Source: Verrucomicrobiota bacterium (GTDB lineage Bacteria > Verrucomicrobiota > Verrucomicrobiia > Verrucomicrobiales > Verrucomicrobiaceae). Taken from it: 64,000 nt of DNA. The notes beneath the pieces were generated by a model, which saw nothing but the letters and a program-made list of their open reading frames with translations, searched no databases and was not told where the DNA came from. Positions within the stretch are counted from its first letter, which is position 1. Each line of letters opens with the position of its first letter. The stretch covers positions 1,289-65,288 of the forward strand of contig VFKE01000091.1 in the NCBI GenBank assembly GCA_009885695.1. The letters are read 5' to 3'. This document shows positions 3,260 through 53,778 of this stretch, in pieces. Both the position numbers and the translations under genes were made by a program.

Positions 3260-3270
3260 TCCGATGGCGT

Positions 3271-19196: not shown

Positions 19197-19254
19197 TGCT
19201 TTTCAAGCCGGTAACTCAGCCATCATGGCTTAGTTATTTTTCAACAGGATGCCA

Positions 19255-19442
19255 GAGCATTTTCAAAAAGACGCAGCCGCATCTCGTAAGAGTGCGGGAA
19301 GCAGCCACGGCAGCCAACGAAGTCTGCCTATTTCCCGCGTTTTCGCCTCGCGACTGCGGGGAGAGCTTCCATTTTTCCCGCGTTCTCACGAACGCGGCTG
19401 CGAACGCGGCTGCGAACGCGGCTGCGAAATTATTTAACCCGC
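19255..19442 (+). repeat. dispersed intergenic repeat element, copy A (REP/MITE-like, hairpin modules)
   Basis: Near-identical to 24599..24774 and, inverted, to 32574..32713. It contains CCGCATCTC-GTAA-GAGTGCGG and CCGCGTTC-tcac-GAACGCGG hairpins. It also carries the 11-mer GAACGCGGCTG three times in tandem. Confidence 0.85.
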
Positions 19443-19443
19443 T

Positions 19444-24483: not shown

Positions 24484-24598
24484 CGCATCATCAGCAGCGC
24501 GCGCAGGTCCGGCCCAGCAACTTGGGAAGAATGCCAGCACGTCATCTTCGAATCCTTTCGAAATGCCCAGAATCATTTACAGACACGAATGGCGCTTA

Positions 24599-24774
24599 GA
24601 GCATTTTTAAAAACACGTAGCCGCATATCGCAAGAGTTCGGGAAGAAGCGACGGCAGCCAACGAAGCCTGCCTCTTTCCCGCGTTTTCGCTTCGCGGCTG
24701 CGGGGAGAGCTTCCATATTTCCCGCGTTCTTACGAACGCGGCTACGAACGCGGCTATGAAATTATTTATACCGC
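24599..24774 (+). repeat. dispersed intergenic repeat element, copy B
   Basis: Aligns by eye along its length with copy A (19255..19442). It has two copies of the tandem 11-mer. Confidence 0.85.
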
Positions 24775-32102: not shown

Positions 32103-32357
32103 TTATGCACCAACGGCATGGCGACTCTTCAAGCGGATCCATCCGGTGCTCGTCAGGGCACCGGCAGGCACCAGGTAATGGATGTGCGGATGATAGCGCA
32201 AGTCCCTTGTCCAGGTTTGCAGCACGCCCGTCATGCCTATCTGACCGCCGAGATGCCGGGGAGCAGCGGCGAAGGTGTGCAGCGCGGCGGCGCTCACGCG
32301 AAAGAACATGCGCGCAATGTGTTCCTTCGTGTACTCTTGGTGTATTACGTCAAGATT
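32103..32357 (-). pseudogene. remnant of an IS91-family (Y2 HUH, rolling-circle) transposase
   Basis: The translated fragment ...GQIGMTGVLQTWTRDLRYHPHIHYLVPAGAL... matches the conserved LHTWgq.L..HPHiHclVPgGgL block of IS91/ISCR transposases. It is only about 85 codons, bounded by stops, with no N-terminal Zn-finger or C-terminal Tyr region. Confidence 0.6.
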
Positions 32358-32573
32358 TTATGCCATCGGCATCGCAGCGTAGTAGCCGGAGGGTTGAGCG
32401 TGCGCCACCCCCGGTTACGAATGGCCATTTCCCGCATTCCGGAGGGATGCAAGCCATTGGCGGATTCGGGCAATTCATTCGCATCCACGCCGACTTCGAC
32501 CCCTGGCGGGGTCGGTTCAATTTTTTGCTTTTCCGGGGGTGTTCGCTGGTTTCTCGCTCGACCCCCGGCTAGA

Positions 32574-32713
32574 GCGGTTTAAATAATTTCGCAGCCGCGT
32601 GCGTGTTGCGCAGCCGCGAAGCTAAAACGCGGGAAATAGGCATGCTTCGTTGGCTGCCGTGGCTGCTTCCCGCACTCTTACGAGATGCGGCTACGTCTTT
32701 TTTAAAAATGCTC
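32574..32713 (-). repeat. dispersed intergenic repeat element, copy C (inverted, lacks the middle module)
   Basis: The reverse complement matches the ends of copies A and B: GAGCATTTTTAAAAAAGACGTAGCCGCATCTCGTAAGAGTGCGGGAAGCAGCCACGGCAGCCAACGAAG...GCGAAATTATTTAAACCGC. Confidence 0.8.
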
Positions 32714-32793: not shown

Positions 32794-34449
32794 ATGATCA
32801 AGCCATGCAAACTCAAGCCACCAGTCCCGCGCCATTACGCGGGCTGCTTGCTTGTGCATCGATGCTGCAACATCGCCAGTCTGGCGCTCTTGTGTTTGTG
32901 CCTCTTGCAGGTGATGGCAACTTCAGCGGCATCAAGTGAAGTGCCACCGCCGGCTTCATCCCCAAGCTATTATTTGCGGGAGTATCGGGTGCTTGGGTCC
33001 AAGCATTTAAAGCCGGTCGAAGTTGAAAAAGCGGTCTATCCCTTTCTCGGACCGGAACGCACACAAGATGACATCGAGCAAGCCCGCGCCGCGCTGGAGA
33101 AAGCTTATCGTGACGCGGGCTATCAAACGGTGAGTGTTCAGGTGGTCGCACCGCCGACGGGCCGTGGCATTGTGGTGCTCCAAGTGGTCGAAGCTCCGAT
33201 CGGGCGACTCCGCGTCCGTGGTTCCCGTTATTATCTGCCCAGCGACATTAAGAAAAAAGCCGGCTCCATGAAGGAGGGCGGGGTGCCCAACTTCACTGAC
33301 GTGACGCGCGATGTCGTGGCACTCAACAAGCTGGCGGATCTGCGGGTGACTCCAGCCCTGCAGCCGGGCGTGGAACCCGGAACCGTGGACATTGACCTGA
33401 ATGTCAAAGACACCCTGCCGCTGCACGGCGCCTTGGAACTGAACAACCGCTACAGTGCAGACACCACGCCGCTCCGGCTCAACGGCTCGATCAGTTACAG
33501 CAACCTCTGGCAGTTGGGACACACGATCAATGCCAGCTTCCAGGTGGCGCCGGAACGGCCGGCGGATGCCACGGTCTATTCAGCATATTACTTCATGCCC
33601 TTTCCCGGCGTGGAGAACCTGAGCCTGATGTTTCAGGGAACCATTCAGGACAGCAACGTCTCCACCCTCGGCGGCGCGGCAGTGGCCGGTAAAGGCCAGG
33701 TGCTGGGAGTGCGCGCGGTATTCACGCTGCCGCAACGCGAGAACTTCTTTCATTCGCTTAGTCTTGGCTGGGATTACAAGCACTTCGACGAGGACGTCAC
33801 GCTGGGCGACGAGGTCACCTCCGCGCCGATTGACTACTATCCGTTCACCGTGGGCTATGGCGCGGGCTGGACAGGCAAAAAGACCTTCACCGAACTCAAC
33901 GCCTCGATGAACTGGAATGTGCGCGGCGTGGGAAGCGATACTGCGAATTTTGACTACAAGCGTTTCAACGCGGACGGCAGTTATCTCTATTTCCGGGGAG
34001 ACCTGTCGCATACCCACGATCTGCCCGGCGGATTTCAGGCTTTCGTCAAGGTGCAGGGCCAGGCCTCAAGCGCTCCCTTGATCAACAGCGAACAGTACGC
34101 CGGCGGGGGCCTGAGCACCGTGCGGGGCTACCTCGAAGCCACGGCCCTGGGTGACCATGGCATCTTCGGCACCGTGGAGTTGCGCAGTCCTTCGCTGCTC
34201 CAGAAGCTCGACAACAAGGAAAACGAATGGCGCGTGTATGCCTTCTACGACGGAGGCCGCCTGACGCTGAGCGATCCCCTGCCCGAGCAGATCGACAACT
34301 ACACGCTGCAAAGCATCGGGTTTGGAACGCGTCTGAAGCTGATGAACCACATCAATGCCTCGCTCGATGCAGGCATGCCGCTCGACAAACAGGCCAATGC
34401 AGAATTGGACCAGTTCTTCCTCACCTTCCGCGTCCAAGCAGAATTCTAG
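32794..34449 (+). CDS. TpsB outer-membrane transporter (ShlB/FhaC/HecB family, Omp85 superfamily)
   Basis: Signal peptide, then POTRA region YYLREYRVLGSKHLKPVEVEKAVYPFLG...IEQARAALEKAYRDAGYQTVSV...GIVVLQVVEAPIGRLRV.GSRYY. The beta-barrel region contains GGLSTVRGY and ends in a terminal F. Confidence 0.85.
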   Translation: MIKPCKLKPPVPRHYAGCLLVHRCCNIASLALLCLCLLQVMATSAASSEVPPPASSPSYYLREYRVLGSKHLKPVEVEKAVYPFLGPERTQDDIEQARAALEKAYRDAGYQTVSVQVVAPPTGRGIVVLQVVEAPIGRLRVRGSRYYLPSDIKKKAGSMKEGGVPNFTDVTRDVVALNKLADLRVTPALQPGVEPGTVDIDLNVKDTLPLHGALELNNRYSADTTPLRLNGSISYSNLWQLGHTINASFQVAPERPADATVYSAYYFMPFPGVENLSLMFQGTIQDSNVSTLGGAAVAGKGQVLGVRAVFTLPQRENFFHSLSLGWDYKHFDEDVTLGDEVTSAPIDYYPFTVGYGAGWTGKKTFTELNASMNWNVRGVGSDTANFDYKRFNADGSYLYFRGDLSHTHDLPGGFQAFVKVQGQASSAPLINSEQYAGGGLSTVRGYLEATALGDHGIFGTVELRSPSLLQKLDNKENEWRVYAFYDGGRLTLSDPLPEQIDNYTLQSIGFGTRLKLMNHINASLDAGMPLDKQANAELDQFFLTFRVQAEF

Positions 34450-34464
34450 TTCAATATTTTTCCA

Positions 34465-36336
34465 ATGATCAAACACCTGACACGATTCAAGTCCGGCCTC
34501 CTGGGCATCCTCTTCCTGGCGAGCATCGCCAGCCAGTCCGTTCACGCGGCCGAGGCTCCCTGGTGGGACAAGCAGTGGCCGCTGCGCAAGAATATCACCA
34601 TCGACACCTCTGACAAGGGCGTGGCCATCAGCGATGCCATTGGCGGCGCCGCGCTGCTGATCAAATTACACGACGGTACTTTTGATTTTGCCTCGGCCAA
34701 GGAGGACGGAAGCGACCTGCGATTCGTCGCTGATGACGGCAAAACCGTTCTCAAGCATCACATTGAGAAATGGGACACGCTTCTCAACGAAGGCTATGTC
34801 TGGGTCCGGGTGCCAGAAATCAAGCCCTCCGGTGCCACCGCCCTCTGGCTTTACTACGGCAATCAAGGTGAAGTTAAAAATGCCGGAGATGCGAAGGGAA
34901 CTTATGATGCGGACACCGCGCTGGTGTATCACTTTGCGGACATGGCCACCGTGGCTGCGGATTCCTCGGCCAGCGGCCTTGCGCTGCAAAACGCGATGCC
35001 TCCCGTGGCCGGTTCGCTGGCGGCGGGCGGCCAGCGCCTGCTGGGACAGACGGCTGTAACCATTCCCGAAGGGCCGGCGTCTGAGTGGCTGGCGGGATCG
35101 GCATTGACCTGGTCAGCATGGTTGAAGCCCGCAACGCTGGCACCGAATGCCGTGGTGTTCAGCCGGCGCGACGAAACGAATGCGCTGATTATCGGACTGG
35201 ACAGCGGCGTCCCGTTTGTCGAGTTCAACGGCAAGCGCTCCGCAAGCGGCGCGGCGGTAAGCGTCGGCGTCTGGCATCACCTGGCGTTGGTGGCCAAGGA
35301 AGGCAAGATGACAGTATTCCTCGATGGCGCGTCGTATGGCACGCTCGACGCGGCGTTGCCCGCGCTCAAAAGCCCTTCGCTCATCGGCAAGGACTCAGTG
35401 CCCGGCGCCGCCGGTTTTGTGGGTGAATTTGACGAACTGCAGGTGGCCCGAACCGCGCGTTCCGAAGGCTTCTTGAAACTCGCCGCAGTGAACCAGGGCA
35501 CGGGATCCAATGCGGCCAAGCTGGTCGTGCTGGGCAATGATGAAGCCTCGGGACACTCGGGCGGTGGCGAGATCATGAAGCATCTCTCGCTGTTCACGGA
35601 CATCTCGAAGAGCCTCACCTTTGACGGCTGGGTTGTGATCGTTCTCTGCGTCCTCCTGGCGGTGGTGGGCTGGGCCGTGGCCATCAAAAAGTTTCTATAC
35701 CTCAACAAGATCAGCAAGAGCAACGATGCCTTCCTCGAACGCTGGGAGAACGTCTCGTCCGATCTCACGGTTTTGGATATGGAAGATGAGAATACGATCA
35801 AGACGCTGGGCGGCACCGCGAGCGGCAAAGCGCAGAAAATGATGCGGCACTCGCCCTTGTATCATATTTATCACCTTGGCTCCGAGGAGGTGCAGAAGAG
35901 AGTGCAGAACGTCCGGCAGATCTCGCTGTCCTCGACACAGAAATTCACCAAAGGCCTGTCGGGCCGCTCCATCCAGGCGATCAAGGCCACGCTGCACGGC
36001 GGCATGGTGCGCGAAGTACAGAAGCTCAACGGCAACCTGGTATTCCTGACCATCGGGATCGCAGGCGGTCCTTATCTCGGACTGCTCGGCACTGTCATCG
36101 GGGTCATGATCACCTTCGCGGTCATCGCGAAATCCGGGCAGGTGGAGGTGAACTCCATCGCGCCCGGCATCGCGGGCGCGCTCCTGGCCACGGTCGCAGG
36201 CCTGGCGGTCGCGATCCCGGCGCTCTTCGCCTACAGCTATCTGGCCTCTCGCATCAAGGACGTGGTCAGCGGCATCGAGACGTTCATCGACGAGTTCATC
36301 GCCAAGATGGCCGAACACCACAAGGAATCCAACTGA
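34465..36336 (+). CDS. DUF2341 + LamG-like + MotA/TolQ/ExbB proton-channel fusion protein
   Basis: Signal peptide. DUF2341-like DLRFVADDGKTVLKHHIEKWDTLLNEGYVWVRVPEIKPSGATALWLYYGN. LamG/concanavalin-like block (WSAWLKP...VWHHLALV...VFLDG...FVGEFDELQVARTARS). C-terminal three-TM ExbB core (LGLLGTVIGVMITF...IAPGIAGALLATVAGLAVAIPALFAY). Confidence 0.8.
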   Translation: MIKHLTRFKSGLLGILFLASIASQSVHAAEAPWWDKQWPLRKNITIDTSDKGVAISDAIGGAALLIKLHDGTFDFASAKEDGSDLRFVADDGKTVLKHHIEKWDTLLNEGYVWVRVPEIKPSGATALWLYYGNQGEVKNAGDAKGTYDADTALVYHFADMATVAADSSASGLALQNAMPPVAGSLAAGGQRLLGQTAVTIPEGPASEWLAGSALTWSAWLKPATLAPNAVVFSRRDETNALIIGLDSGVPFVEFNGKRSASGAAVSVGVWHHLALVAKEGKMTVFLDGASYGTLDAALPALKSPSLIGKDSVPGAAGFVGEFDELQVARTARSEGFLKLAAVNQGTGSNAAKLVVLGNDEASGHSGGGEIMKHLSLFTDISKSLTFDGWVVIVLCVLLAVVGWAVAIKKFLYLNKISKSNDAFLERWENVSSDLTVLDMEDENTIKTLGGTASGKAQKMMRHSPLYHIYHLGSEEVQKRVQNVRQISLSSTQKFTKGLSGRSIQAIKATLHGGMVREVQKLNGNLVFLTIGIAGGPYLGLLGTVIGVMITFAVIAKSGQVEVNSIAPGIAGALLATVAGLAVAIPALFAYSYLASRIKDVVSGIETFIDEFIAKMAEHHKESN

Positions 36337-36338
36337 CC

Positions 36339-36746
36339 ATGCAGGCAGACAACAAGTCATACGACGACATCAACGTCACACCGATGGTGGATCTCTACCT
36401 GGTGCTGTTGTTGATCTTCATCATCATGACCACGGCCGGCGTCCAGGGCGTGAAGGTGAACCTGCCCAAGGCCAGTGCTGCGTCCGCCAAGAAGATGGAC
36501 GCGCCGAAGATCCAAGCGATCACCGTGGACAACCAGGGCACCATCAAGCTCAACGCCACGCAGGTATCCTCGCTGTCGGACCTGGAGCAGAAGCTGGCCG
36601 CCGTGAAAGCCTCGACCCCTGATTTCCCGGCAGTCGTGCGCGGCGACAGCCAGACCCAATACCAGGTCATCATGGATGTCCTCGATGTGCTCGGCCGTGT
36701 CGGCATCACGCAAGTCGGCCTGGCAACCAAGCCAGCCGGCAAATAA
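36339..36746 (+). CDS. exbD: ExbD/TolR-family biopolymer transport protein
   Basis: 135 aa. INVTPMVDLYLVLLLIFIIMT TM segment with the conserved Asp, then a periplasmic domain (VRGDSQTQYQVIMDVLDVL). It starts 2 nt after the ExbB-like stop. Confidence 0.85.
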   Translation: MQADNKSYDDINVTPMVDLYLVLLLIFIIMTTAGVQGVKVNLPKASAASAKKMDAPKIQAITVDNQGTIKLNATQVSSLSDLEQKLAAVKASTPDFPAVVRGDSQTQYQVIMDVLDVLGRVGITQVGLATKPAGK

Positions 36747-36775
36747 TATTTTACAACCCGCAACCCACTCAGGCC

Positions 36776-37498
36776 ATGAGCAAGCACCGCTACCCCGATG
36801 AGGAATTTGACGATGATACCATCTTCAAGAGGCATCGCTGGCTGCTGCCCCTGATCATAATCGTTGCCGTCGGCGGCATCGGTTATGCGGCTTCAAAGAT
36901 CAAAGTCGAACCCTCGGCTCCCCCGCGGCCGATGGAGCGGATGATGACAATCACTCTGCCTCCTCCGCCACCGATAGTGCAACCGCCGCCGCCGCCGAAA
37001 GTGGAGCCACCGCCGGAAGACAAGAAGGAGGAGATGCTCGAACAGGAGGAAGTGAAACCGGATGAAGTCAAAGAACCGGAACCCAAACCTTCGGATGACC
37101 CCCCGCCCATCGGCACCAACAACGTGGGCAGCGGACCTCCCGACGGGTTCGGACTCGGTGCCTACAAAGGCGGCGCCGGCGGCAGTGGCGGAGGCTCGGG
37201 TCGCAGCGGACGCGGCGGCAGCAAGTTCGGCTGGTATGCCGGACAAGTGCAGACCCGCATCGCCGACGCGCTGCGAAGCAACGGTCGCACCCGCAATGCG
37301 AGCCTCTCGCTGCAAGTTCGCATCTGGGCTGACAGCAGCGGGCGCATCACCCGCGCAAGTCTGGTGGGATCCAGCGGCGACAACTCAATGGACAGCGCCA
37401 TCGCCAACGAAATCCTCACGGGCTTGCAACTTCAAGAAGCGCCGCCAGCCGACATGCCGATGCCGATCAATCTGCGCATCACAGCCCGCAAATCCTAA
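36776..37498 (+). CDS. TonB-like energy transducer
   Basis: N-terminal TM anchor, Pro/Glu/Lys-rich spacer (PPPPPIVQPPPPPKVEPPPEDKKEE...), a Gly-rich segment, and a C-terminal TonB-type domain (FGWYAGQVQTRIADAL...VRIWADSSGRITRASLVGSSGD..MDSAI). Confidence 0.7.
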   Translation: MSKHRYPDEEFDDDTIFKRHRWLLPLIIIVAVGGIGYAASKIKVEPSAPPRPMERMMTITLPPPPPIVQPPPPPKVEPPPEDKKEEMLEQEEVKPDEVKEPEPKPSDDPPPIGTNNVGSGPPDGFGLGAYKGGAGGSGGGSGRSGRGGSKFGWYAGQVQTRIADALRSNGRTRNASLSLQVRIWADSSGRITRASLVGSSGDNSMDSAIANEILTGLQLQEAPPADMPMPINLRITARKS

Positions 37499-37516
37499 TC
37501 AATAATTTTTACTGCC

Positions 37517-39448
37517 ATGTTGAATTGGAAAACATCCACCACCCTCCTGCTATTCTGCCTCGGCGGAGTTTCATTCCTGCATGGAGCAGACACACCGTTG
37601 CTCAATCTTCCAGGCGCGGGTGATCCTCCCTTGATCGCACAGGCCGGAAACGACGGACCTTCGCCGCTGCTGTTCGACAACGCCCCGCCCAATCCCGTGG
37701 CCCAGACAGCTCCGGCTGCTCCATCGCCCAACGCCACAATCAACCTGATCCGCATCCTCGTGAAGAAAAAAGTCCTTTCGGAAGCCGAGGCAGGCGAGAT
37801 GATCCAGCAGGCCGAGGAGGAGGCTGCGCTGGCCCAAGCCCAAGCCGCGGGTGTTCCCAGCCCTGACGCCGATGGCGCGGTGCGGGTGACTTATGTCCCG
37901 GAAATCGTCAAGGACCAAATTCGCGACGAGCTGAAAGCCGACGTACTATCCCAGGCGCGCCGGGAAGGCTGGGCCGCACCGAAGGAGGTTCCTGACTGGA
38001 CCAAGCGCATCAAACTCTTCGGCGACGTCCGCCTGCGCTATGACACCACTTACTTCCCAGCGGGGAATGACAATACAGGCGCCTTCCCCAACTTCAATTC
38101 GATCAACACCGGCTCGCCCTTCGATGTCAGTGGCACAAATTTTTCACCGCAACAAAATGTTGACCAGGAACGTCAGCGGCTGCGGTTGCGCGCGCGCCTG
38201 GGGGCGGATGCCAATCTGGAAAACGGCTGGTCCGCCGGCATCCGCATCGCTACCGGCGACAGCAACAGTCCCGTTTCCATGAACCAAACGCTCGGCCTGG
38301 CCGGCAACGCCCAGGGCGGCAACTTCAGCAAATACTCCCTGTGGCTTGACCGCGGATTCATCAATTATGAGATCGGCGGCGGCCAGCGCTATATGGAGAA
38401 AACCGAGCTGGAAGCGGACGGTAAAACCCTGCGCACCGTCATGGTTCCGCGTGAATCCCGCGGCCTGCTCTCGCTGTCTTTTGGCCGGTTTGACAATCCG
38501 TTTTTTACCACCAGCGAATTGATCTGGGATGAAGACCTGGGATTTGACGGCCTGGCCATCAAGGGCCGTTATCAAATCGCCAAAGGCGTGACTCCCTTCT
38601 TTGCTGCGGGACTCTTTCCGATCTTCAACACCGACTTCAACTTTGCCACCAACCAGCCCGCCAAGTTTGATAGCACGGACAAGTGGCTTTATGCCGCACA
38701 GATCGGTGTTGATCTGAAGTTCTCTCGGAATGTCGATGCCAAGGGCGCCGTGGCTTACTACGACTTCCAGGGTGTTGCGGGTGAACTGTCCGATCCCTTC
38801 ATTCCATTCAGCTCCCAGGACCAGGGCAACACCGACGGCACCCGCCAGTCGTTTGCGCAACGGGGCAACACCTACCGCGCCATCCGCAACATCGTCCCAG
38901 ATGCGCTCAACAACTTCGGCACCAGCAACCAGTTTCAATACTTCGGGCTGGCTTCTCCATTCGAGGTGCTGTCCTACAGCGGGCGCATTAATTTGAACCA
39001 CTTCGAGCCCATTCAGATTTCATTCCTCGGCGAATACGCCGAGAATCTGGCTTGGAACAAGGGCGACATCAACCAGGTGGCGGTCAACAATCGCGGCCCG
39101 TTGCCGGCAGATACAGACACCACCGCGCCAGCCCCGGTGGGTGAGTACGACGGTGGAGGCACCGCGTGGAACCTCGCCATCATTGTCGGCAAGCCGGTGT
39201 TCGAAAAAGCGGGCGACTGGAGCATGACCTTTGGCTACCGTTATGTGGAGTCCGATGCCATTGTTGATGCCTTTTCGGATTCGGATTTCGGCGCAGGCGG
39301 CACCAACATCGAAGGTTACACGGTGGGCGGCTCCGTCGCGCTTTCTCCGAAAGTGAAATTTGGCGTGCGCTGGATGGGCGCCAATCAAATTGCCGGCCCG
39401 CCATTGAAAAGCGACGTCCTCCTTCTCGACCTCACCGCCAAATTCTAG
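37517..39448 (+). CDS. putative outer-membrane beta-barrel (porin-like) protein with an N-terminal helical extension
   Basis: Signal peptide, then helical LIRILVKKKVLSEAEAGEMIQQAEEEAALAQAQAAG. Alternating amphipathic beta-strand pattern rich in aromatic/Gly residues, with the terminal signature LLLDLTAKF. Confidence 0.6.
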   Translation: MLNWKTSTTLLLFCLGGVSFLHGADTPLLNLPGAGDPPLIAQAGNDGPSPLLFDNAPPNPVAQTAPAAPSPNATINLIRILVKKKVLSEAEAGEMIQQAEEEAALAQAQAAGVPSPDADGAVRVTYVPEIVKDQIRDELKADVLSQARREGWAAPKEVPDWTKRIKLFGDVRLRYDTTYFPAGNDNTGAFPNFNSINTGSPFDVSGTNFSPQQNVDQERQRLRLRARLGADANLENGWSAGIRIATGDSNSPVSMNQTLGLAGNAQGGNFSKYSLWLDRGFINYEIGGGQRYMEKTELEADGKTLRTVMVPRESRGLLSLSFGRFDNPFFTTSELIWDEDLGFDGLAIKGRYQIAKGVTPFFAAGLFPIFNTDFNFATNQPAKFDSTDKWLYAAQIGVDLKFSRNVDAKGAVAYYDFQGVAGELSDPFIPFSSQDQGNTDGTRQSFAQRGNTYRAIRNIVPDALNNFGTSNQFQYFGLASPFEVLSYSGRINLNHFEPIQISFLGEYAENLAWNKGDINQVAVNNRGPLPADTDTTAPAPVGEYDGGGTAWNLAIIVGKPVFEKAGDWSMTFGYRYVESDAIVDAFSDSDFGAGGTNIEGYTVGGSVALSPKVKFGVRWMGANQIAGPPLKSDVLLLDLTAKF

Positions 39449-39450
39449 CC

Positions 39451-40212
39451 ATGATTCATCACTCCCTGCTCATCATTCCCCTGACGCTGGCCGCTGCCGC
39501 AAGCTTTGCCTCCAGCGCTGCCGATCCTGCCGTCGAGGCCAACAAAAAGCTGCGCGAATCCTTGCGCAACACCATGATCCAGCTCCGCACCGTGGAAATG
39601 GATAAAGCCACCCTGCAGGCGGCACAAATGGAACTGGAACTGAAGAACAAGGACCAGGGAGATAAAATCAAGGGGCTGGAAAAAAAAGTTTCCGATCTCA
39701 TCAAACAAAGCAGTGCTGACAAGGCCGAGGCGGAGAAGAAGGCGGCTGATCAGGCCTCCTCCATCGTGACCCGCGACTTGGAAATCTCGCGGCAGAACGA
39801 ATCACTTCAGAAATGGAAAGACTATCAGGTGAAGGCCGAGGGTCTCGTCAAGAAACTCAGCGCCGAACGTGCCAGCAAGACCTCGGAGGCCATCGTGCTG
39901 CAGCGCCGGGTGGATGACCAGCAGCGAAGAAACGCCGAGATGTATAAAATCGGAACTGAGGTTCTCAGCCGGCTGGAGAACTTTGGACTGGGCACCGCGT
40001 TCACGGCACGGGAGCCTTTTGTGGGCACCACGCGCGTGAAGCTGCAGAACCTGTTTCAAGATGCCGCAGACAAGCTGGCTGATGCCAGAATCAAGCCCGG
40101 CCAGCCTTCGATCGACAGCACTTCCCAGCCTGCGCCAGCTCAGAGCGAGGCACCCGCCAAAGATTCGAAAGCGGATCAAAAGAAAACACCGCCCATCGCC
40201 AGTAAATCCTAG
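39451..40212 (+). CDS. periplasmic coiled-coil protein (possibly DUF3450/TtpB-like)
   Basis: Signal peptide and about 200 aa of heptad-like K/E/Q/L-rich sequence. It starts 2 nt after the porin stop. The family assignment is unverified. Confidence 0.55.
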   Translation: MIHHSLLIIPLTLAAAASFASSAADPAVEANKKLRESLRNTMIQLRTVEMDKATLQAAQMELELKNKDQGDKIKGLEKKVSDLIKQSSADKAEAEKKAADQASSIVTRDLEISRQNESLQKWKDYQVKAEGLVKKLSAERASKTSEAIVLQRRVDDQQRRNAEMYKIGTEVLSRLENFGLGTAFTAREPFVGTTRVKLQNLFQDAADKLADARIKPGQPSIDSTSQPAPAQSEAPAKDSKADQKKTPPIASKS

Positions 40213-40374
40213 CAGCCTGTTGAAAAACGAGGTAACACGGGCTTCCAGCCTGTGATGTTGATCAGGCCTCTGGCCTGATGCGCAGGAAAAACGACAGGCT
40301 GGTGCGCAGCCGCGAAGCGAACCCTGTCGCACACTCAGCCAGGATGGCCGAGTTACTTTTTCAACAGGCTGCTA
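40210..40374. mobile_element. MITE-like element bounded by perfect 18-bp terminal inverted repeats
   Basis: TAGCAGCCTGTTGAAAAA (40210..40227) versus TTTTTCAACAGGCTGCTA (40357..40374). Nested internal inverted repeats are CCAGCCTGT/ACAGGCTGG and ATCAGGCC/GGCCTGAT. The TTTTTCAACAGG end also flanks repeat copy A at about 19238. Confidence 0.6.
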
Positions 40375-40658
40375 GGCCATCAGGTCTAACGACGACCGCC
40401 GTTTCCCTCTTTGAGTCCAGGCCCCCGTTCGTAGCGAAAAGCATTCCAAGAATCACCGGAACTCTATCAACGAGAATCGCGTTGACATGACGCCCCAAAC
40501 TTCGGCGGACTCTCTCGGCATCGAGCGCAGAAGGGGCGAGCAACAGCGCCTCAGCCGAGCCATAAAACAAAATACGCCCGCGTCGTGTAATTTTGACTTC
40601 TGGCAGTGGCGTAAATGCCTGTAGCAAGAGCGAGAATGCGGTCGTTTGCCAAGACCAA

Positions 40659-40723: not shown

Positions 40724-44872
<4,149 letters not shown>

Positions 44873-44911
44873 GCTATTGGGATGGATGAGTTTGCGTTTT
44901 CGACGATCAGA

Positions 44912-47900
44912 TTACATGCCGGAGGCGGCGGGGAACATTTCAAGGCTTTCATGCTGGTTCATTTGGCTGGAGACTTTCACGTCGAGGCCGAGTGACTGCA
45001 TTTCCTTGATAAGCACGTTGAAGGATTCAGGCGTGCCAGCTTCGAGGGCGTTGTCGCCCTTGACGATACTTTCGTAGATGCGCGTGCGACCCTGCACGTC
45101 ATCGGATTTCACGGTGAGGAGTTCCTGCAGCGTGTAAGCCGCGCCGTAGGCCTCAAGGGCCCACACTTCCATTTCGCCGAAACGCTGGCCACCGTATTGG
45201 GCCTTACCACCAAGCGGCTGCTGGGTGACGAGGGAATAAGGTCCGACCGCGCGGGCGTGAATCTTGTCGGCAACAAGGTGTCCGAGCTTCAGCATGTAGA
45301 TGTAGCCGACGACGACCTCCTGGCCGAAGGTTTCTCCTGACCGGCCATCGGTGAGCGTGCTCTTGCCGTTGAGTCCGATCCATTCAAAACCAGGAACCTT
45401 CTTGGCGTCCTTGAGGAAGCCCATGATCTGCTTCTCGGGGATACCATCGAAGACAGGCGTGGCGATCTTCATTCCAAGTGCCCGTGCCGCGACGCCGAGG
45501 TGAGTCTCCAACACCTGGCCGACGTTCATACGGCTGGGAACGCCGAGAGGGTTGAGGCAGATGTCCACCGGCGTGCCGTCTTCGAGGAAGGGCATGTCTT
45601 CTTCTGGCACGATGATGGCGACAACACCCTTGTTGCCGTGGCGACCTGCCATTTTATCACCCACGCTGAGCTTGCGCTTGCTGGCGACAAAAACACGAAC
45701 CTCCTTGATAACGCCGCTATCCAGCTCGTCACCCTGTTCGATACGATCGAGTGAACGCTCGCGCTCCATGTCCGCCTCGCTGAACTTTGGCTCGAAGCTC
45801 TGGATGATGTCCATGATCTTGTGACGGATCGGTGACTGATCGATCTCGATGGAGCGGTGTGACTCGGCAAGGGTGCGGAGCAATGTCTTGGTGATCTTTT
45901 TGTTGGCCGGGATGATGACTTCGCCGGATTCGCCGTTGACCACGTCGAGGTTGATTTTCTCATTGAGCAGAATCTCGCAGAGCTTTTCGGTGAGTTGCTC
46001 AGTATACTGTTCAACCTTGGTCTTGTGCTCGTCGGTGATTGCCTTGAGTTGCTTCTTTTGTTCGCTGGGCGAGAGGTGCTCTTTTTCGGCGCCAGTGCGG
46101 GAGGATACGCGAACGTCCATCACGATGCCTGCGCAACCGGACGGAACCCTAAGGGATGAGTCCTTCACATCCGCGGCCTTTTCACCAAAGATGGCGCGCA
46201 AGAGGCGCTCTTCCGGAGCGAGTTCCGTTTCGCTTTTTGGGGTGATCTTGCCGACGAGGATGTCGCCGGGTTTCACTTCGGCACCGATGCGGACCACGCC
46301 GTCAGGACCGAGATTGCGGAGTGCTTCATCGCCGACGTTCGGGATGTCACGGGTGATTTCCTCGGGCCCGAGTTTGGTGTCCCGGGCGCCGATATCAAAG
46401 TCCTCGATGTGGATCGAGGTGTAGACGTCCTCCTTGACAACCCTGCGGCTGATGACGATGGCATCCTCGAAGTTGTATCCGTTCCATGGCATGAACGCGA
46501 CGAGCATGTTGCGTCCAAGCGCGAGTTCACCGTTGTCGGTGCAAGGACCGTCCGCGAGGATGTCGCCCTTTTTCACCTTCTGGCCGCGCTTGACGAGCGG
46601 TTGTTGGTTGATGCAGGTGCCGGCGTTGGAGCGCATGAACTTGCTCAGGCTGTAAACATAAACGCCCTTGTCGGGATCGGTCTTCACCTTGCCGGGTTCG
46701 GCGGCGAATGCCTTCTCGCTAATCGGAAGATCGCCGTCCTTGGTAACGATGATGCAGTCCGCCGTGGCGCTGGCCACGATGCCGTTGGCATCCGCGATAA
46801 TGACGGCTTGCGAATCGCGCGCCGTTTTGCCTTCCATGCCGGTGCCGACGAACGGCGCTTCCGACTCCAGAAGCGGCACACCCTGGCGCTGCATGTTCGA
46901 ACCCATCAACGCACGGTTGGCGTCATCGTGCTCGAGGAATGGAATGAGCGAGGCGGCGACGGAGACAAGCTGCTTGGGCGAGACATCCATGTAGGTGGCC
47001 TGCTCCGGTTCAACTTCGAGGAACTCGCCGCGATAGCGCACCGTAACCTTGGCCTCTTTGTAACGGCCGCGGTCATCGATCACATTACTCGCCTGGGCGA
47101 CAAAGTGATTCTCTTCCTGATCGGCAGTGAGGTAGTCGATCTTATCGGTGACACGTCCGCCATCCACCTTGCGGTAGGGGGTTTCAATAAAGCCAAACTC
47201 ATTGATACGCGCGTAACTGCACATCGAATTGATGAGGCCGATGTTCGGACCTTCCGGAGTTTCAATGGGGCAGATGCGACCGTAGTGCGATGGATGCACG
47301 TCGCGAACTTCAAAGCCAGCGCGATCACGGTTCAAGCCGCCAGGCCCGAGGGCGGAGAGACGACGCTTGTGGGTCAGCTCGGCCAGAGGATTCATCTGAT
47401 CCATGAACTGGCTCAACTGCGAGCGCGCGAAGAAATCACGCACCACAGCGCTGAGCGCCTTGGGATTGATGAGCTTCTGCGGCGTCATCACATCCATGTT
47501 CACGTCGAACAAGGTCATGCGCTCTTTCACGAGACGCTCGGTGCGGGCCAGGCCGACGCGGCACTGGTTGGCGAGAAGTTCGCCGACAGCCCGCACGCGG
47601 CGGCTGCCAAGGTGATCAATGTCATCGATCACGCCTTTGCCGGCACGCAGCTTGAAGAGGTAATGCATGGCGGAGATCACGTCCTCTGCGGTGAGGATGC
47701 GCTCGTTGGTGTCCACCTTGATGGAGAGTTTCTGATTGATCTTGTAGCGGCCGACCCGCGTGAGGTCATAGCGCTTCGGATCAAAGAACAGACGCTTCAC
47801 CAGAGCGCGCGCGTTGGGAACAGTCGGCGGATCTCCAGGGCGGAGACGGCGGTAGATTTCTTTCAGGGCCTCGTCTTCATCATGGGCCACGTCTTTGCGC

Positions 47901-48748
47901 AGGGATGCGATGAGGAGATCGTCCTGAGTGGCGCTAACCACCTTGGCGGATTTATGGCCGAGCTGAATAAGCTGGCGCACAATGCCCTGGGTGAGTGGCT
48001 CGTAGGCGCGCGCGATGATAAGTTCGCCGTCGAGGATGTCCTTGAAGATGACCTTGGAGAGAAGCTCCTCTTCGTTGAGGTTTTCCTTCAGCTTGAGATC
48101 CTCGATCGGATAGAAAAGCTTGAGGATATCCTCATCTGTGGGGAAGCCAATGACGCGCAGCAGCGTGGTCGCGAGGAATTTGCGGCGGCGACGGCGGCGG
48201 TCGAGATAGACATAGAGCAGATCGTTGGTGTCGAACTGAACTTCGAGCCAGGTGCCGCGGTCAGGAATGATGCGGAAGCCGAAGAGCCAGCGGCCGTTGA
48301 GGTGCTGATTGGTTTCAAAGCAGATGCCAGGCGAGCGGTGCAACTGGCTGACGACGACGCGCTCGGCGCCGTTGATAACGAAGGCGCCGCGGTTGGTCAT
48401 CATGGGCAGCTCGCCCATATAGACACGCTCCTGCTTGGCGCCAGCTTCGTCCTTGAGTTCGTAGGTGACGTAAAGCGGTGCGCTGAATGACTCCGCATCG
48501 CGAAGTGCTTCGACGGGGGACAGCTTCGGCTCGCCAATGTCATAGAGCGCGAAGTCGAGCGTCATTTTGCCATCGTAGCTTTCAATCGGGAAGACCTCGC
48601 GGAACACGGCTTGGAGGCCGGTATTTTTGCGTTGCGAGGGGGTGACATCCTTTTGGAGGAATTCCTCGTAGGATTTGATCTGAACCTCAATGAGGTTCGG
48701 CGGTTCGATTGGATCCTTGATCTTGCCAAAGTTAATGCGCTGGGACAT
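44912..48748 (-). CDS. rpoB: DNA-directed RNA polymerase subunit beta
   Basis: 1278 aa. [90 protein letters not shown]. Confidence 0.98.
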
Positions 48749-49028
48749 ACGACGTGGGGCTGGGTTTCGGCAACGGGGGTTGGTAGCGAGGCGGTGCCGG
48801 AGGCTGATCCGGCATTGGGTGGCACATGACGGAGGTGAATCCGTCGCGGGCCTATGTTAGTTGATGGAGACAAAAATGCCGGCCACCACAAAAGTGGCGG
48901 CGGCAATCAATTTCTGTCGAAACGCCAGCACCTGCCCCCATGCCGCGATGAGTCCCAAAGGACGGTTCGGCGGCAAGGTGAGGGGGCGGAGTGATGGCAT
49001 CTCGGAAATTTCTGGATTCTGGTAAGAT

Positions 49029-49059
49029 GGCGTTGCGCCACACGCGGTGGCACAACGCC
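49029..49059 (-). terminator. 13-bp-stem hairpin in the rplL-rpoB spacer (candidate attenuator)
   Basis: Minus strand GGCGTTGTGCCAC-cgcgt-GTGGCGCAACGCC begins 15 nt after the rplL stop. The U tract is weak (ATCTTACC). E. coli has a partial terminator at the equivalent position. Confidence 0.5.
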
Positions 49060-49073
49060 CAAATGAGTGAAGC

Positions 49074-49457
49074 TTATTTGATTTCGACTTTGGCACCGGC
49101 GGCCTCCATCTTCTTCTTGATCTCGTCGGCTTCTTCCTTGCTGACGCCCTGCTTGAGCGGCTGAGGAGCACTTTCAACGAGCTTCTTGGCATCGGCCAGG
49201 CCGAGTCCGGGAACCACGGTGCGCACTTCCTTGATGACGCCGATCTTGTTCGAGCCAGCGTCGGTGAGGACGACATCGAATTCGGTCTTGGCTTCAGCGG
49301 CGGGTGCGGCTGCGGCACCGCCACCACCAGCGGCGGCAACGGCAACGGGAGCGGCTGCGCTCACGCCCCACTTGGTTTCAAGGGTCTTCACAAGTTCAGC
49401 AACTTCCAAGACGGTAAGTCCGCTGAGTTCATCTACGATTTTATTGAGGTCTGCCAT
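49074..49457 (-). CDS. rplL: 50S ribosomal protein L7/L12
   Basis: [32 protein letters not shown]...KVEIK. Confidence 0.97.
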
Positions 49458-49665
49458 GTTATTTTTGTGGTATCGCCGTCAACCGGAGCTCCGGTGGTTT
49501 TCAGACTGTCGGCCGACAGTCCGGCGAGGAACCGTTTGGTGTTTTTAGTTCAGGCGGCTTGCACCGCCATCGGATCAAAGTGGGTAATAAGTTATTGGTT
49601 ATGAGTTATGGGTTGTTCCGGCAATTTCGTCATCTAACGACTAACTAATAACCCATGACCTGGAT

Positions 49666-50181
49666 TCACGCGGCCTTGTCGCCCTTGGCCTGAATGACGC
49701 GGGCGAGCGATGCAGCGGGTTCGTTGAGCAGGCGCACGAGCTGGCTCGCGGGCGCCTGAAGCACGCCGAGAAGCTGGGCGAGCAGCACTTCACGCGCAGG
49801 AAGGTCGGCAAGAACCTTGATGCCGTCGGCGGTGAGATACTTGCCATCGAGAACGCCGGCCTTCATCTTGGGCCGTTCGAACTCGCTGGAGAAGGTCTTC
49901 ATCACCTTGGCGGTGGCGCAAACGTCCTTCGCGCCAGTGACGATGGCGGTCTGGCCGGTGAGCACGGCGCTGAGTTCGGCGGGATACTTCGCGCGCTCGG
50001 TGGCTTTTTTTACCAGCGTGTTTTTATACACGTGCATTTCAGCACCAGCACCACGAAGGCGTTTGCGCAGCTCCTCAAATTTATCAACCGTCAGGCCGCC
50101 GTAATCCACGACGAACATGAAGGGCGAGGCGTTCACCTTCTGGAGAAGGTGGTCGATCATGATGTTTTTTTCTTCTTTCAT
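49666..50181 (-). CDS. rplJ: 50S ribosomal protein L10
   Basis: 171 aa. FMFVVDYGGLTVDKFEELRKRLR... in the conserved position between rplA and rplL. Confidence 0.95.
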   Translation of the reverse strand: MKEEKNIMIDHLLQKVNASPFMFVVDYGGLTVDKFEELRKRLRGAGAEMHVYKNTLVKKATERAKYPAELSAVLTGQTAIVTGAKDVCATAKVMKTFSSEFERPKMKAGVLDGKYLTADGIKVLADLPAREVLLAQLLGVLQAPASQLVRLLNEPAASLARVIQAKGDKAA

Positions 50182-50199
50182 CTGCGTGTTTCCTCGGGG

Positions 50200-50910
50200 T
50201 TAGGCCGCAACGGCAATTTTAATGTGCTTGGTCACGTCCACCTTGATGGGTGGCGACATGGTGGCCGCAAGCGTGATGTTCTCGATGAAGCGACCCTTGG
50301 CGGAAGCAGGACGGGCGCGCATGACGGCGTCGATCAATGCCTGGGCATTTTCGACGATGGCCTTCTGCTCAAAGCCGACTTTGCCAACGGGCGCGGCGCA
50401 ATTGCCGTTTTTGTCGAGCTTGAATTCGACACGGCCCGCCTTGACGGACTTCACGGCACCGGCGATGTCGTCGGTCACGGTGCCGGTTTTCGGATTGGGC
50501 ATCAGACCGCGTGGTCCGAGTTGTTTTCCGAGCTTGCGCACTTCGGCCATGGCCGCAGGAGTCGCGATGGCAACATCGAAATCAAGGAAGCCTTCTTTCA
50601 CTTTGGCGATCAAATCTTCGTAGCCGATGACTTCAGCGCCCGCAGTCTTGGCGGCGGTCGCGGCATCGCCCTGGGCGAAGACGGCGACCTTCACATTCTT
50701 GCCGGAACCGTGTGGAAGCGGGCAGGTGCCACGCACCATCTGATCAGACTGCTTGGGATCCGCAGTCAGGCGGAAAGACAGCGTGACGGTCTGATTGAAC
50801 TTGGTGGTTGGCAGTTTGCGGACAAGGTCAGCGGCCTCGTCAAGCGAGTGGAGCTTTCCTGCCGGGATCATTTCCACGGCTTTGCGATATCTTTTGCTTC
50901 TGTGTTTCAT
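50200..50910 (-). CDS. rplA: 50S ribosomal protein L1
   Basis: 236 aa. KFNQTVTLSFRL..DPKQSDQMVRGT..LPHGSGK, LGPRGLMPNPKTGTVT. Confidence 0.97.
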   Translation of the reverse strand: MKHRSKRYRKAVEMIPAGKLHSLDEAADLVRKLPTTKFNQTVTLSFRLTADPKQSDQMVRGTCPLPHGSGKNVKVAVFAQGDAATAAKTAGAEVIGYEDLIAKVKEGFLDFDVAIATPAAMAEVRKLGKQLGPRGLMPNPKTGTVTDDIAGAVKSVKAGRVEFKLDKNGNCAAPVGKVGFEQKAIVENAQALIDAVMRARPASAKGRFIENITLAATMSPPIKVDVTKHIKIAVAA

Positions 50911-50985
50911 ATTGGGGTGCAGTGCGAGCGAACCGGTTATTGATTCTCCTGCTTGTTGGTTTTCGGTTTCAGTTACGTGAAAAGA

Positions 50986-51411
50986 TTAGTCCGTGATCTC
51001 GATGCCCATCTGGCGGGCGGTGCCGGCCATGATCTTGCAGGCGGCGTCGAGATTGGTCGTATTGAGATCGGGCAATTTTAATTTTGTTGCTTCCAGAAGC
51101 TTGGCGCGGGTGATCTTCGCGACCTTCTTCTTGTTCGGCTCGCCAGAACCGGAGGCGATGTTGGCCACCTTCTTGAGCAAATTGGAAGCGGGCGGTTGCT
51201 TGGTGATGAAGGTGAAACTTTTGTCTTTGTAAACCGAGATCACGGTCGGCAGGACGTCGCCGCCGGCTTTTTGGGTGGCGGCATTGAACTCCTTGCAGAA
51301 GGCCATGATGTTCACGCCGGCCTGGCCGAGCGCAGGTCCGATGGGCGGCGCTGGATTGGCGGCACCGGCTTTGATCTGAAGTTTAATGACTTTGACGACT
51401 TCTTTTGCCAT
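50986..51411 (-). CDS. rplK: 50S ribosomal protein L11
   Basis: [44 protein letters not shown]. Confidence 0.97.
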
Positions 51412-51441
51412 TTTCTTGAGGAGTTGAGATGTGAAATTTTA

Positions 51442-52011
51442 CTAGGCTTTTTCGACCTGCCAATATTCGAGGTCCACAGGAGTGGAGCGTCCGAAGATGT
51501 TCACGGAGACGCGCAACAGGCCGCGCTCCTGATCGATTTCTTCAATGGTGCCCACCTGGCTTTCAAAGGGACCGTCTGCCACGCGAACGCTGTCGCCCGG
51601 CGTGAACTGAATTTTCGGCTTGGCACCGGATTCGCTTTCACGCATCTGCGCGCGCAGCGCCTCGATTTCCTTCGGACGGAGAGGGATGGGATGATCCTTG
51701 GCACCGGCGAAATTAAGGAAACCATCGGTTTCCTTCACGAAGTGCCAGGTTTTTACCATCGGCTTGTTGTGTTCGTCCAGGAGCCACATGTTGGCCAGGA
51801 TGTAGCCGGGAAATTTCTTGCGCACGGACTCCGATTTCTTGCCCTTCTTGACTTCGGATACGCGGTCGGTGGGGACGATGACTTCGTAGATATACTCCGC
51901 CATCTCCTCGCTCTCGATGCGTCGGATCATGTTCTCACGCACACGCTGCTCGAGGCCTGCGCGCACGTGCATGACATACCATTGATCTTTAGGTTCGGGG
52001 ATGGCTCCCAT
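51442..52011 (-). CDS. nusG: transcription termination/antitermination factor NusG
   Basis: WYVMHVRAGLEQRV NGN domain and C-terminal KOW (GDSVRVADGPFESQVGTIEEID). Confidence 0.95.
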   Translation of the reverse strand: MGAIPEPKDQWYVMHVRAGLEQRVRENMIRRIESEEMAEYIYEVIVPTDRVSEVKKGKKSESVRKKFPGYILANMWLLDEHNKPMVKTWHFVKETDGFLNFAGAKDHPIPLRPKEIEALRAQMRESESGAKPKIQFTPGDSVRVADGPFESQVGTIEEIDQERGLLRVSVNIFGRSTPVDLEYWQVEKA

Positions 52012-52052
52012 ATAATTGGTGTGGACTGGAGACGCGCCTGGCTGGCCGCGGC

Positions 52053-52262
52053 TTATTGAGTAAAGGCTTGAAAAAAGTTGCGCAAAACGAGATCAAAGAT
52101 TCCGGTGAAAGCCGCCAGCAGAAGCATGGCCACGAAAACCACTGCCGTGGCGTCAGTCAGCTCCTTGTAGCGGGCGAATCCCCTTTCTTTGGGATCCCAT
52201 GGCCACGTGGCTTTTCTCAACTCGGACCAGACTTCGGAAAGATAATTGGTTACGCGGTTCAT
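52053..52262 (-). CDS. secE: preprotein translocase subunit SecE
   Basis: MNRVTNYLSEVWSELRKATWPWDPKE...single TM. Conserved position upstream of nusG. The start at 52262 is preferred over the track start at 52313. Confidence 0.85.
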   Translation of the reverse strand: MNRVTNYLSEVWSELRKATWPWDPKERGFARYKELTDATAVVFVAMLLLAAFTGIFDLVLRNFFQAFTQ

Positions 52263-52378
52263 GGAGGAAGTTAATAGCTGAGAGTTGATGGCTGATAGCC
52301 TGAGTGGAAACAAATCAAATCGGAGCAGTAAGGGAGCGAGGGAAATTTTGACTATCAGCTATCGACTATCAGCTAATC

Positions 52379-52454
52379 TGGCACGCCGGGAGGGACTCGA
52401 ACCCCCAACCAATGGTTTTGGAGACCACTACTCTACCAATTGAGCTACCGGCGT
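52379..52454 (-). tRNA. trnW: tRNA-Trp (anticodon CCA)
   Basis: Minus strand ACGCCGGTAGCTCAATTGGTAGAGTAGTGGTCTCCAAAACCATTGGTTGGGGGTTCGAGTCCCTCCCGGCGTGCCA. Cloverleaf with 7-bp acceptor stem, CT-CCA-AA anticodon loop, TTCGAGT T-loop and encoded CCA. Confidence 0.9.
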
Positions 52455-52593
52455 ATATCGTCCTCGCGGACTGTCTCGTTTGGATCGTTGCGTTCAGGGT
52501 TTCGTTCAGGAAAAGCCGTCTGGGGACAAGTGCTCCGCGGATGCCTGTTTGCCACAAGCCCGCGGAGTCTGTGAACTCAGACGGCGCAGTGAA

Positions 52594-53778
<1,185 letters not shown>

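Follow-up and report, generated by a model that had tools for sequence, protein, structure and literature searches.

The window analysed here, a 64,000 nt stretch of contig VFKE01000091.1 from a bacterium of the Verrucomicrobiaceae (GenBank assembly GCA_009885695.1), contains a block of six genes at 32794-40212 in which the gene for a TpsB transporter of two-partner secretion (TPS) is followed by genes for a proton motor, a TonB/TolA-like protein, a second outer-membrane barrel and a secreted coiled-coil protein. The six genes are very probably the verrucomicrobial orthologue of pdtB-exbB2-exbD2-tonB4-PA0696-PA0697 of Pseudomonas aeruginosa and constitute a dedicated module. That this module serves PdtA-type giant TPS exoproteins, which combine a TPS domain with a C-terminal DUF3739, by the specific mechanism set out below is a more tentative proposal, and the explanation as a whole, orthology and mechanism together, is given a probability of about 0.5. 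Judged from sequence comparisons, the module is a unit conserved across phyla that predicts an envelope-spanning set of proteins and is mobile as a unit. Dedication to TPS is suggested because TpsB heads the block and the block remains intact while its surroundings change.

All six genes are on the + strand and are separated by 15, 2, 29, 18 and 2 nt. Gene 1 (32794-34449) predicts the 551 aa TpsB (Pfam ShlB, 70 bits; POTRA_2, 48 bits), gene 2 (34465-36336) a 623 aa fusion of DUF2341 and LamG domains with a TolQ/ExbB protein (DUF2341, 66 bits; Laminin_G_3, 61 bits; MotA_ExbB, 93 bits), and gene 3 (36339-36746) an ExbD/TolR protein of 135 aa (ExbD, 93 bits). Gene 4 (36776-37498) predicts a 240 aa TonB/TolA-like protein (TonB_2, 29.8 bits with a cut-off of 22), gene 5 (37517-39448) a 643 aa barrel that matches Porin_5 over the full profile (632 bits), and gene 6 (39451-40212) a secreted coiled-coil protein of 253 aa with no Pfam or NCBIfam family. 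The original prediction, an earlier reading of this DNA, had given these six open reading frames (ORFs), their strand and their gaps exactly, and the ORF list reproduces the coordinates of the block; the domain assignments made at that time are borne out by the Pfam and NCBIfam searches. The nearest database relatives are Verrucomicrobiaceae and Prosthecobacter proteins with the identical three-domain architecture, and direct sequence searches with the products of genes 4, 5 and 6 against solved structures gave no matches. Inside the block there are 13 terminator-like sites, which is not above chance (9.7 ± 3.2 in shuffled sequences) and would be compatible with a single transcript for the six genes. 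A divergent gene for a 2,069 aa TPR protein flanks the block on one side and rpoC/rpoB on the other.

A relative of the gene 5 barrel is encoded in at least 591 species genomes, as found in a scan of one genome per species that used 12 distant members of the barrel family as the query. The barrel family comprises 2,296 clusters (50% identity) at E<=1e-3 and 463 at E<=1e-30. The loci that were fetched (labelled with L-numbers below) are the 80 best-scoring of the at least 591 and not a random sample, and they favour the proteobacterial branch because the scan used the distant 12-member alignment. They come from Alpha-, Beta- and Gammaproteobacteria and from three verrucomicrobial orders, represented by Chthoniobacterales, Opitutaceae and Prosthecobacter; two further bins are labelled Acidobacteria and Solirubrobacterales, labels that may reflect mis-binning. 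Gene order was counted where the sequence reached 5.2 kb or more upstream of the barrel gene, in 67 loci onto which the window proteins were mapped by tblastn. TpsB, the DUF2341/LamG part, the ExbB part and ExbD are found upstream of the barrel in the order and orientation of the window in 63 of the 67, an arrangement far beyond chance, and the DUF2341/LamG-ExbB fusion is likewise retained in 63/67. Genes 4 and 6 are both poorly conserved, and ORFs of the expected size and architecture are present in ∼55 loci for gene 4 and ∼48 for gene 6. A TpsA gene lies within the 10 kb flanks in only 29 of the 80 loci, so that the link of TpsB to the motor and barrel is closer than its link to TpsA (63/67 versus 29/80). 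The usual continuation of the cluster in Proteobacteria consists of genes for YbjN (18 loci), a PpiC-type rotamase (33 loci, including Prosthecobacter) and LysR (23 loci). No gene for an inner-membrane importer is conserved in the cluster across the loci.

Four barrels among the 67 loci are without the module, and one of these is located amid Tad-pilus genes. In an alphaproteobacterial metagenome-assembled genome (L007, 6468-13865) the Porin_5 barrel gene lies between TadE/TadG-like pilus genes and a gene for an OmpA-domain protein; L009, L011 and L019 also belong to this subgroup of Porin_5 barrels that lack the cassette.

The order of the six window genes, from TpsB to the coiled-coil protein, is that of PA0692-PA0697 in the published gene table of P. 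aeruginosa (PMC7035377). The cluster of that species consists of pdtA (PA0690), phdA, pdtB, exbB2, exbD2, tonB4, PA0696, PA0697, PA0698 and PA0699 (PMC7035377, PMC2729926), with PA0696 annotated as a 'putative outer membrane porin', PA0697 as having a signal peptide, PA0698 as YbjN and PA0699 as PpiC (PMC7035377). PAO1 was compared by this gene table only, and for more than 25 loci from Pseudomonas species each gene in turn could be aligned to its window counterpart. These other Pseudomonas species have the DUF2341-LamG-ExbB fusion, the Porin_5 barrel and a DUF3739 TpsA in common with the window, and their loci carry a PhdA/transposase-like gene at the PA0691 position and YbjN, PpiC rotamase and LysR genes at the PA0698-0701 positions. 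The window differs in its origin in the Verrucomicrobiota, in the location of tpsA 18 kb away on the other strand, and in its accessory genes; no PpiC, YbjN or PstS-like genes were found in the window and no LysR or Vre (vreAIR-like) genes were seen there, and a tandem FGE-fold gene is present instead.

All of the PA0690-PA0699 genes belong to the sigma-VreI/PhoB regulon (PMC7035377), and PdtA, PA0696 and PA0698 rank with the most strongly induced proteins when phosphate is limiting (PMC9769906). This phosphate-starvation-induced cluster has been published as "still uncharacterized". The adjacency of pdtB and exbB2-exbD2 in P. aeruginosa, which the original prediction had cited as uncharacterised, is real and so described, and the conservation across distant phyla that it foresaw was found, extending over three classes of Proteobacteria and three orders of Verrucomicrobiota. 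Such adjacency had been described before, as an association of tpsB, exbBD and PA0696 in several Proteobacteria was already noted by Llamas et al. in 2009 (PMC2729926). A literature search found no functional study of exbB2, tonB4, PA0696, PA0697, DUF2341, DUF3739 or Porin_5. The module is not treated in the 2017 TPS review (PMC5422565), where HxuC is the sole TonB-related partner mentioned, or in two 2025 surveys of stators and force transducers (PMC12505986, PMC12204202), and the survey of TolA/TonB-type force transducers makes no mention of a TPS-linked clade.

The gene 2 product has a cleavable-looking signal sequence, a periplasmic head made up of DUF2341 and a LamG jelly-roll (approximately residues 40-360) and a three-helix TolQ/ExbB channel domain. 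In the AlphaFold2 (AF2) model the overall predicted local distance difference test (pLDDT) score is 72, and the head reaches 85-93. In Foldseek comparisons the modelled head resembles domain 4 of AbnA, which binds carbohydrate, the Hcn domain of BoNT and the pentraxin PTX3, and the modelled C-terminal part matches TolQ (target template modelling (TM) score ∼0.75). The best NCBIfam matches are tolQ for gene 2 (114 bits with a cut-off of 221) and tolR for gene 3 (99 bits with a cut-off of 127). The channel threonines T543 and T576 of gene 2 are invariant in 45 homologues, and gene 3, which is 42-66% identical to its orthologues, has a transmembrane aspartate of the ExbD/TolR type, D18, within VTPMVDLYLVLLLIF. 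Because the threonines are invariant, the aspartate is present and the predicted fold is that of TolQ, genes 2 and 3 are taken to encode a proton stator that retains the residues required for proton flow and is apparently functional. DUF2341 appendages are listed, with their function given as unknown, in the 2025 stator survey (one of PMC12505986 and PMC12204202).

Gene 4 predicts a protein with an N-terminal transmembrane anchor, a poly-proline spacer, a Gly-rich segment and a C-terminal domain of ∼90 aa, features seen in an alignment of 25 orthologues. TonB_2 is matched by 22 of these and TonB_C by 8, and the family profile matches HasB (2m2k, 1.7e-4), TolA (6s3w and 1lr0, 2e-4) and TonB (9ddz, 0.038). 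At the sequence level, the protein that had been named TonB-like at the outset is therefore assigned to the TonB/TolA C-terminal-domain superfamily. An SHLS/His motif is typical of canonical TonB and TolA anchors and in the TonB family couples the anchor helix to ExbB/ExbD, whereas no conserved His or SHLS motif is present in the anchor of the 25 aligned gene 4 orthologues.

Gene 5, which represents the PA0696 family, is modelled with a signal peptide, a disordered Pro-rich stretch, three periplasmic helices that would form a stalk, a conserved strand, and a barrel of ∼18 strands with no plug (pLDDT 68; predicted TM (pTM) score 0.62). The best Foldseek match to the model is OmpM1 (8bym; 1e-14, target TM 0.70-0.73), and MOMP, OprB, chitoporin, AlgE and DcaP also appear among the putative structural relatives. 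No Plug or TonB_dep_Rec Pfam matches were obtained for gene 5. Since the predicted barrel is plug-less, has ∼18 strands and not 22, is preceded by a helical stalk and has porins as its nearest folds, the gene 5 product was rejected as a classical TonB-dependent transporter. TonB-dependent uptake through this second barrel, one of the roles first suggested for it, does not hold in its classical form and would be possible only in a non-canonical one. A highly conserved strand-helix segment, VRVTYVPEIVKDQIR, precedes the barrel, and the conserved strand reads VRVTYVPEIV. Gene 6, of the PA0697 family, predicts a signal peptide and, after it, a long coiled coil. Orthologues aligned from Verrucomicrobia, Pseudomonas, Burkholderia and Alphaproteobacteria have the conserved C-terminal motif N..LY..G.E.L..YE....G....R[EQ]PF.G..RVK.E.L.Q, and comparison of gene 6 with the PDB gave generic coiled-coil matches only.

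Gene 1 predicts a PdtB-type Omp85 transporter composed of a signal peptide, a short low-complexity spacer, two POTRA domains and a ShlB barrel, and is 35-56% identical to its proteobacterial and verrucomicrobial orthologues. The protein matches the CdiB structure 6wim (E 1.5e-8), and its residue 46 pairs with residue 41 of CdiB. FhaC and CdiB have an H1 plug helix and a linker before POTRA1, whereas the PdtB-type family appears to have neither, because only 10-30 variable, low-complexity residues lie between the signal peptide and POTRA1 in the window protein and in 16 orthologues from all clades. As the usual H1 plug segment is predicted to be missing, gating may differ from that of FhaC and CdiB. 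The orthologue alignment includes no conserved N-terminal motif, and a TonB box at the N-terminus of TpsB was rejected for lack of conservation there.

The cognate TpsA is encoded at 3271-14907 on the − strand, ∼18 kb from TpsB and in the opposite orientation, and does not adjoin the cassette. The gene predicts a PdtA-type giant exoprotein of 3,878 aa, in which Pfam and NCBIfam identify a TPS/NPXG domain (TPS, 55.7 bits; adhes_NPXG, 65 bits) and a C-terminal DUF3739. It is 46-50% identical, over ∼2,560-3,290 aligned residues, to TpsA proteins whose genes come straight after the cassette in genomes of Chthoniobacterales, Opitutaceae and Prosthecobacter (L027, L028, L030, L031 and L060). The C-terminal 300 aa share 38-42% identity over their full length with the C-termini of TpsA from Pseudomonas and Paraburkholderia, the genes for which are upstream of TpsB; the range is 40-42% for Pseudomonas alone, and the TpsA C-terminus of Pigmentiphaga (L079) is 34% identical. 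The longest TpsA ORF begins at a TTG and the TPS domain is found only from residue 166 (region 14410-14907), indicating either that the true start is further downstream or that the protein has an extended N-terminal leader.

In the proposed mechanism, a TolQ/ExbB-like pentamer with an ExbD/TolR-like axle would convert proton flow into force, each subunit of the pentamer bearing a periplasmic, lectin-like DUF2341-LamG head. The proline-rich TonB/TolA-like protein would carry this force across the periplasm to the periplasmic stalk of the Porin_5 barrel and/or to the coiled-coil protein, both of which would be positioned beside TpsB. Ordinary TpsA proteins do without the step that this energy would drive. 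Most probably, the motor would govern how the conserved C-terminus of the giant TpsA is handled late in or after translocation (for example its anchoring, release or retraction at the surface), and the energy would not go into import via a classical TonB-dependent gate. A secretion-side role rather than import is suggested because a gene for PpiC, a periplasmic peptidyl-prolyl isomerase of the parvulin type, follows gene 6 in 33 loci, no importer is conserved and the barrel is predicted to be plug-less; this recurrent parvulin chaperone and the lack of importer and plug, together with the location of TpsB at the operon head, also point to a late step in the path of TpsA. In its strongest form, the proposal would make this the first type V secretion system with its own proton motive force (PMF) engine, the motor acting via the stalked barrel to power secretion, release or retraction, which is possible but rather doubtful.

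Several observations weigh against the proposal. In other systems, reconstituted TPS secretion proceeds in vitro with no energy source (PMC5422565), and single mutants in PA0690, PA0692, PA0695 and PA0696 had no zebrafish virulence defect, in assays of virulence and not of secretion (PMC2729926). In a motor-less locus in Rhizomicrobium (L017, 2507-9535) the barrel gene comes directly after TpsB, and a gene-6-like ORF, PpiC, a 572 aa PstS-like protein and TpsA succeed it in that order; the motor may thus be dispensable or supplied in trans, and this locus suggests that a core of TpsB, barrel and coiled-coil protein is able to exist without a dedicated motor. Barrels that have no motor genes beside them (L009, L011, L017, L019 and L020) likewise retain the VRVxYVP strand. 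This strand is therefore not usable as specific evidence for a dedicated TonB box, and the candidate motor-specific box VRVxYVPE is unsupported. In addition, the confidence of the AF2 models of gene 2 and gene 5 is moderate.

A precedent for a different role is HxuCBA of Haemophilus influenzae, in which a TpsA/TpsB pair and a Ton-dependent outer-membrane barrel are encoded in one operon (PMC5422565, PMC4873976). By analogy, the surface-exposed TpsA would bind or release a scarce nutrient, probably one that contains phosphorus, that the barrel imports with energy from the Ton-like motor, and the LamG heads, plus PstS-like proteins where present, would be the periplasmic receivers. Such capture and import would account for the control of the P. 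aeruginosa cluster by PhoB/VreI and for the strong induction of PdtA, PA0696 and PA0698 (PMC7035377, PMC9769906), and is also in keeping with the large PstS-like (PBP_like_2) genes in the cluster in six alphaproteobacterial loci, with a gene for a PhoD-like alkaline phosphatase ∼3.8 kb upstream of TpsB in one Chthoniobacterales genome (L027, 334-1284), and with the apparent resemblance of the modelled barrel to the substrate-specific channels OprB, chitoporin and AlgE and of the modelled ExbB head to carbohydrate-binding modules. The PhoD gene and the PstS-like neighbours hint at a phosphate connection outside Pseudomonas. However, HxuC is a plugged 22-strand transporter that works on the housekeeping TonB, whereas the window predicts a plug-less barrel of porin type with its own ExbB/ExbD/TonB-like set, and no known TonB gating mechanism applies to a plug-less barrel of ∼18 strands. 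The cluster also has no conserved inner-membrane transporter, the recurrent PpiC chaperone better suits the export of an unfolded giant protein, and phosphate-linked neighbours are found in a minority of loci and not in the window. ORF 16033-17958, considered as a divergent PstS-like protein, was not borne out as such, with no BLASTP match, no Pfam match even at E 10 and an hhalign probability of 2.7%. Overall, capture and import is the main rival explanation, though an unlikely one, and the two that follow are less likely still.

The E. coli tol-pal operon is closed by the gene for a coiled-coil protein, CpoB, and the six-gene block likewise ends with a gene for a periplasmic coiled-coil protein. 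Genes 2 and 3 score best as TolQ and TolR, the transducer profile matches TolA as strongly as TonB-type proteins, and OmpM1, the best structural match to the modelled barrel, is an outer-membrane attachment porin with a periplasmic stalk. The module could then be a Tol-Pal-like tether, in which a proton-driven link between the inner and outer membranes would stabilise the envelope at the filament anchor and act on neither TpsA nor cargo. This is improbable, as all TolQ and TolR scores are under the NCBIfam cut-offs, and neither the block nor any of the 80 loci has a TolB or Pal homologue. The module further differs from Tol-Pal in the periplasmic head of ∼350 aa on its TolQ-like protein and in its tie to a TPS transporter. 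A tether also leaves the presence of TpsB at the operon head (63/67) and the conservation of the TpsA C-terminus unexplained. Coincidence, with a TPS transporter gene merely adjoining an alternative Ton system, would agree with the separate entries for pdtAB and exbB2-exbD2-tonB4 in the P. aeruginosa literature (PMC7035377), but is highly improbable given that order, strand and tight spacing are identical in three proteobacterial classes and three verrucomicrobial orders and that the block moves as a unit in rearrangements.

The arrangement in the window indicates that the six-gene block was split from tpsA as a unit, because the ORFs beside tpsA adjoin TpsB in relatives. Three ORFs at 15130-19206 (− strand), predicting proteins of 267 aa, 641 aa and 380 aa, the last with a PEP-CTERM, correspond to genes found directly before TpsB in other Verrucomicrobia. 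They were matched by tblastn in L030 and L031 and by BLASTP to ORFs of L031 (4e-12 and 1e-40), and synteny of these homologues (L031, 1439-4625; L030, 1815-3993) with the cassette is seen in Prosthecobacter and Opitutaceae. In the 719 nt gap between the TPR gene and TpsB there is a remnant of an IS91-family (Y2) transposase gene (32103-32309, − strand; 68 aa; Pfam Y2_Tnp, E 1.3e-11), which is likely the scar of the relocation of the block. A repeat search also identified an intergenic element of ∼100-190 nt upstream of TpsB (32568-32712, + strand), which includes a small hairpin and then a T run, with further copies at 19254-19448 (inverted, upstream of ORF 18064), 24598-24760 and 57062-57106. 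The inverted copies upstream of ORF 18064 and TpsB are 93% identical over 99 nt and have equal orientation relative to each gene, and these copies and the IS91 remnant sit at the junctions of the split locus. The block is intact in two closer relatives, L081 and L083 (barrels 87% and 79% identical), and its surroundings differ. L081 contains only a 42 nt piece of the repeat, and the 81 nt beside the TpsB ATG are 83% conserved. With four copies in the window and no conservation in the 87% identical relative, the repeat is unlikely to be a dedicated shared operator; it could be a generic intergenic repeat through which this rearrangement took place, or a shared leader.

A perfect 20 nt inverted repeat (40208-40227 and 40357-40376, arms 129 nt apart) begins within the stop codon of gene 6, and a copy of the arm with two mismatches is located at 19237-19255 (− strand), beside the repeat at 19254. 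Neither a 20 nt inverted repeat nor an arm copy is expected by chance. In L083 (5274-9228), gene calling splits TpsB into several short pieces and joins the ExbB channel part to ExbD, which is probably a frameshift error of the long-read assembly and not real decay. The rpoC-rpoB cluster abuts the cassette in the window, followed further on by tRNA-Trp, a probable tuf ORF (so labelled by position and length alone) and tRNA-Thr (40724-53943), an arrangement that is unusual relative to the relatives. At the Rfam gathering thresholds, the whole window contains two tRNAs only. The TPR gene divergent from TpsB was rejected as a conserved partner, since no homologue is found in any locus.

A gene for a secreted tandem FGE-fold protein (1589-3259, − strand; Pfam FGE-sulfatase in two stretches) is located 11 nt downstream of TpsA. 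Orthologues are found upstream of TpsB in L081 (76% identity; 226-1800) and directly after gene 6 in L083 (43% identity; 12767-14494). The gene thus accompanies the system at three different positions in three Verrucomicrobiaceae genomes, and its product is a lineage-specific companion of the system. Read against the motif of human FGE, both domains are without the catalytic Cys pair. GldK/PorK and GldJ, which have the FGE fold but are not catalytic, serve as structural components of the motor-driven apparatus for type IX secretion and gliding, and a parallel with the companion protein is possible.

The window system resembles FhaB/FhaC and CdiA/CdiB in its TpsB, with two POTRA domains and a ShlB barrel, and in the TPS/NPXG domain of TpsA, but those systems have no dedicated energy module. 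In outline, the proposed machine also works like Agl-Glt of Myxococcus, in which a TolQR-like motor and the proline-rich, TonB-like GltG and GltJ reach outer-membrane barrels and control exposure of the adhesin CglB (PMC9946355, PMC11761067). Homology between the two is limited to the classes of motor and transducer. Unlike in Agl-Glt, the putative adhesin of the window is a giant type Vb exoprotein that has an Omp85 transporter of its own.

The P. aeruginosa gene cluster was already catalogued and the proteobacterial adjacency noticed in 2009. What this analysis adds is the reach of the conservation, over six genes, two phyla and hundreds of species, the observation that TpsB is tied more closely to the motor than to TpsA, and the anatomy of the parts. 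As the TpsB-motor link holds in hundreds of species and two distant phyla, the machine is old, under selection and overlooked. The question of its function is directly testable, because the same module is present in the genetically tractable P. aeruginosa and is strongly induced there by phosphate limitation and in infection, and the predicted anatomy (lectin-like stator heads, a plug-less stalked barrel, a TpsB without plug helix and a conserved TpsA C-terminus) may guide experiments. If the module serves to scavenge phosphate, it would represent a new route of energised import through a barrel that is not a TonB-dependent transporter. Type V secretion is described as self-sufficient, needing no ATP, no membrane potential and no energy source (PMC5422565), and a TpsB gene bound to a complete proton-motor set questions this energy-free view. 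Should the module prove to be a PMF engine of its own, it would contradict the rule that type V secretion requires no external energy, in a system that is widespread in Proteobacteria and Verrucomicrobiota, and would join Agl-Glt and the type IX system as a third type of adhesin machine driven by a motor.

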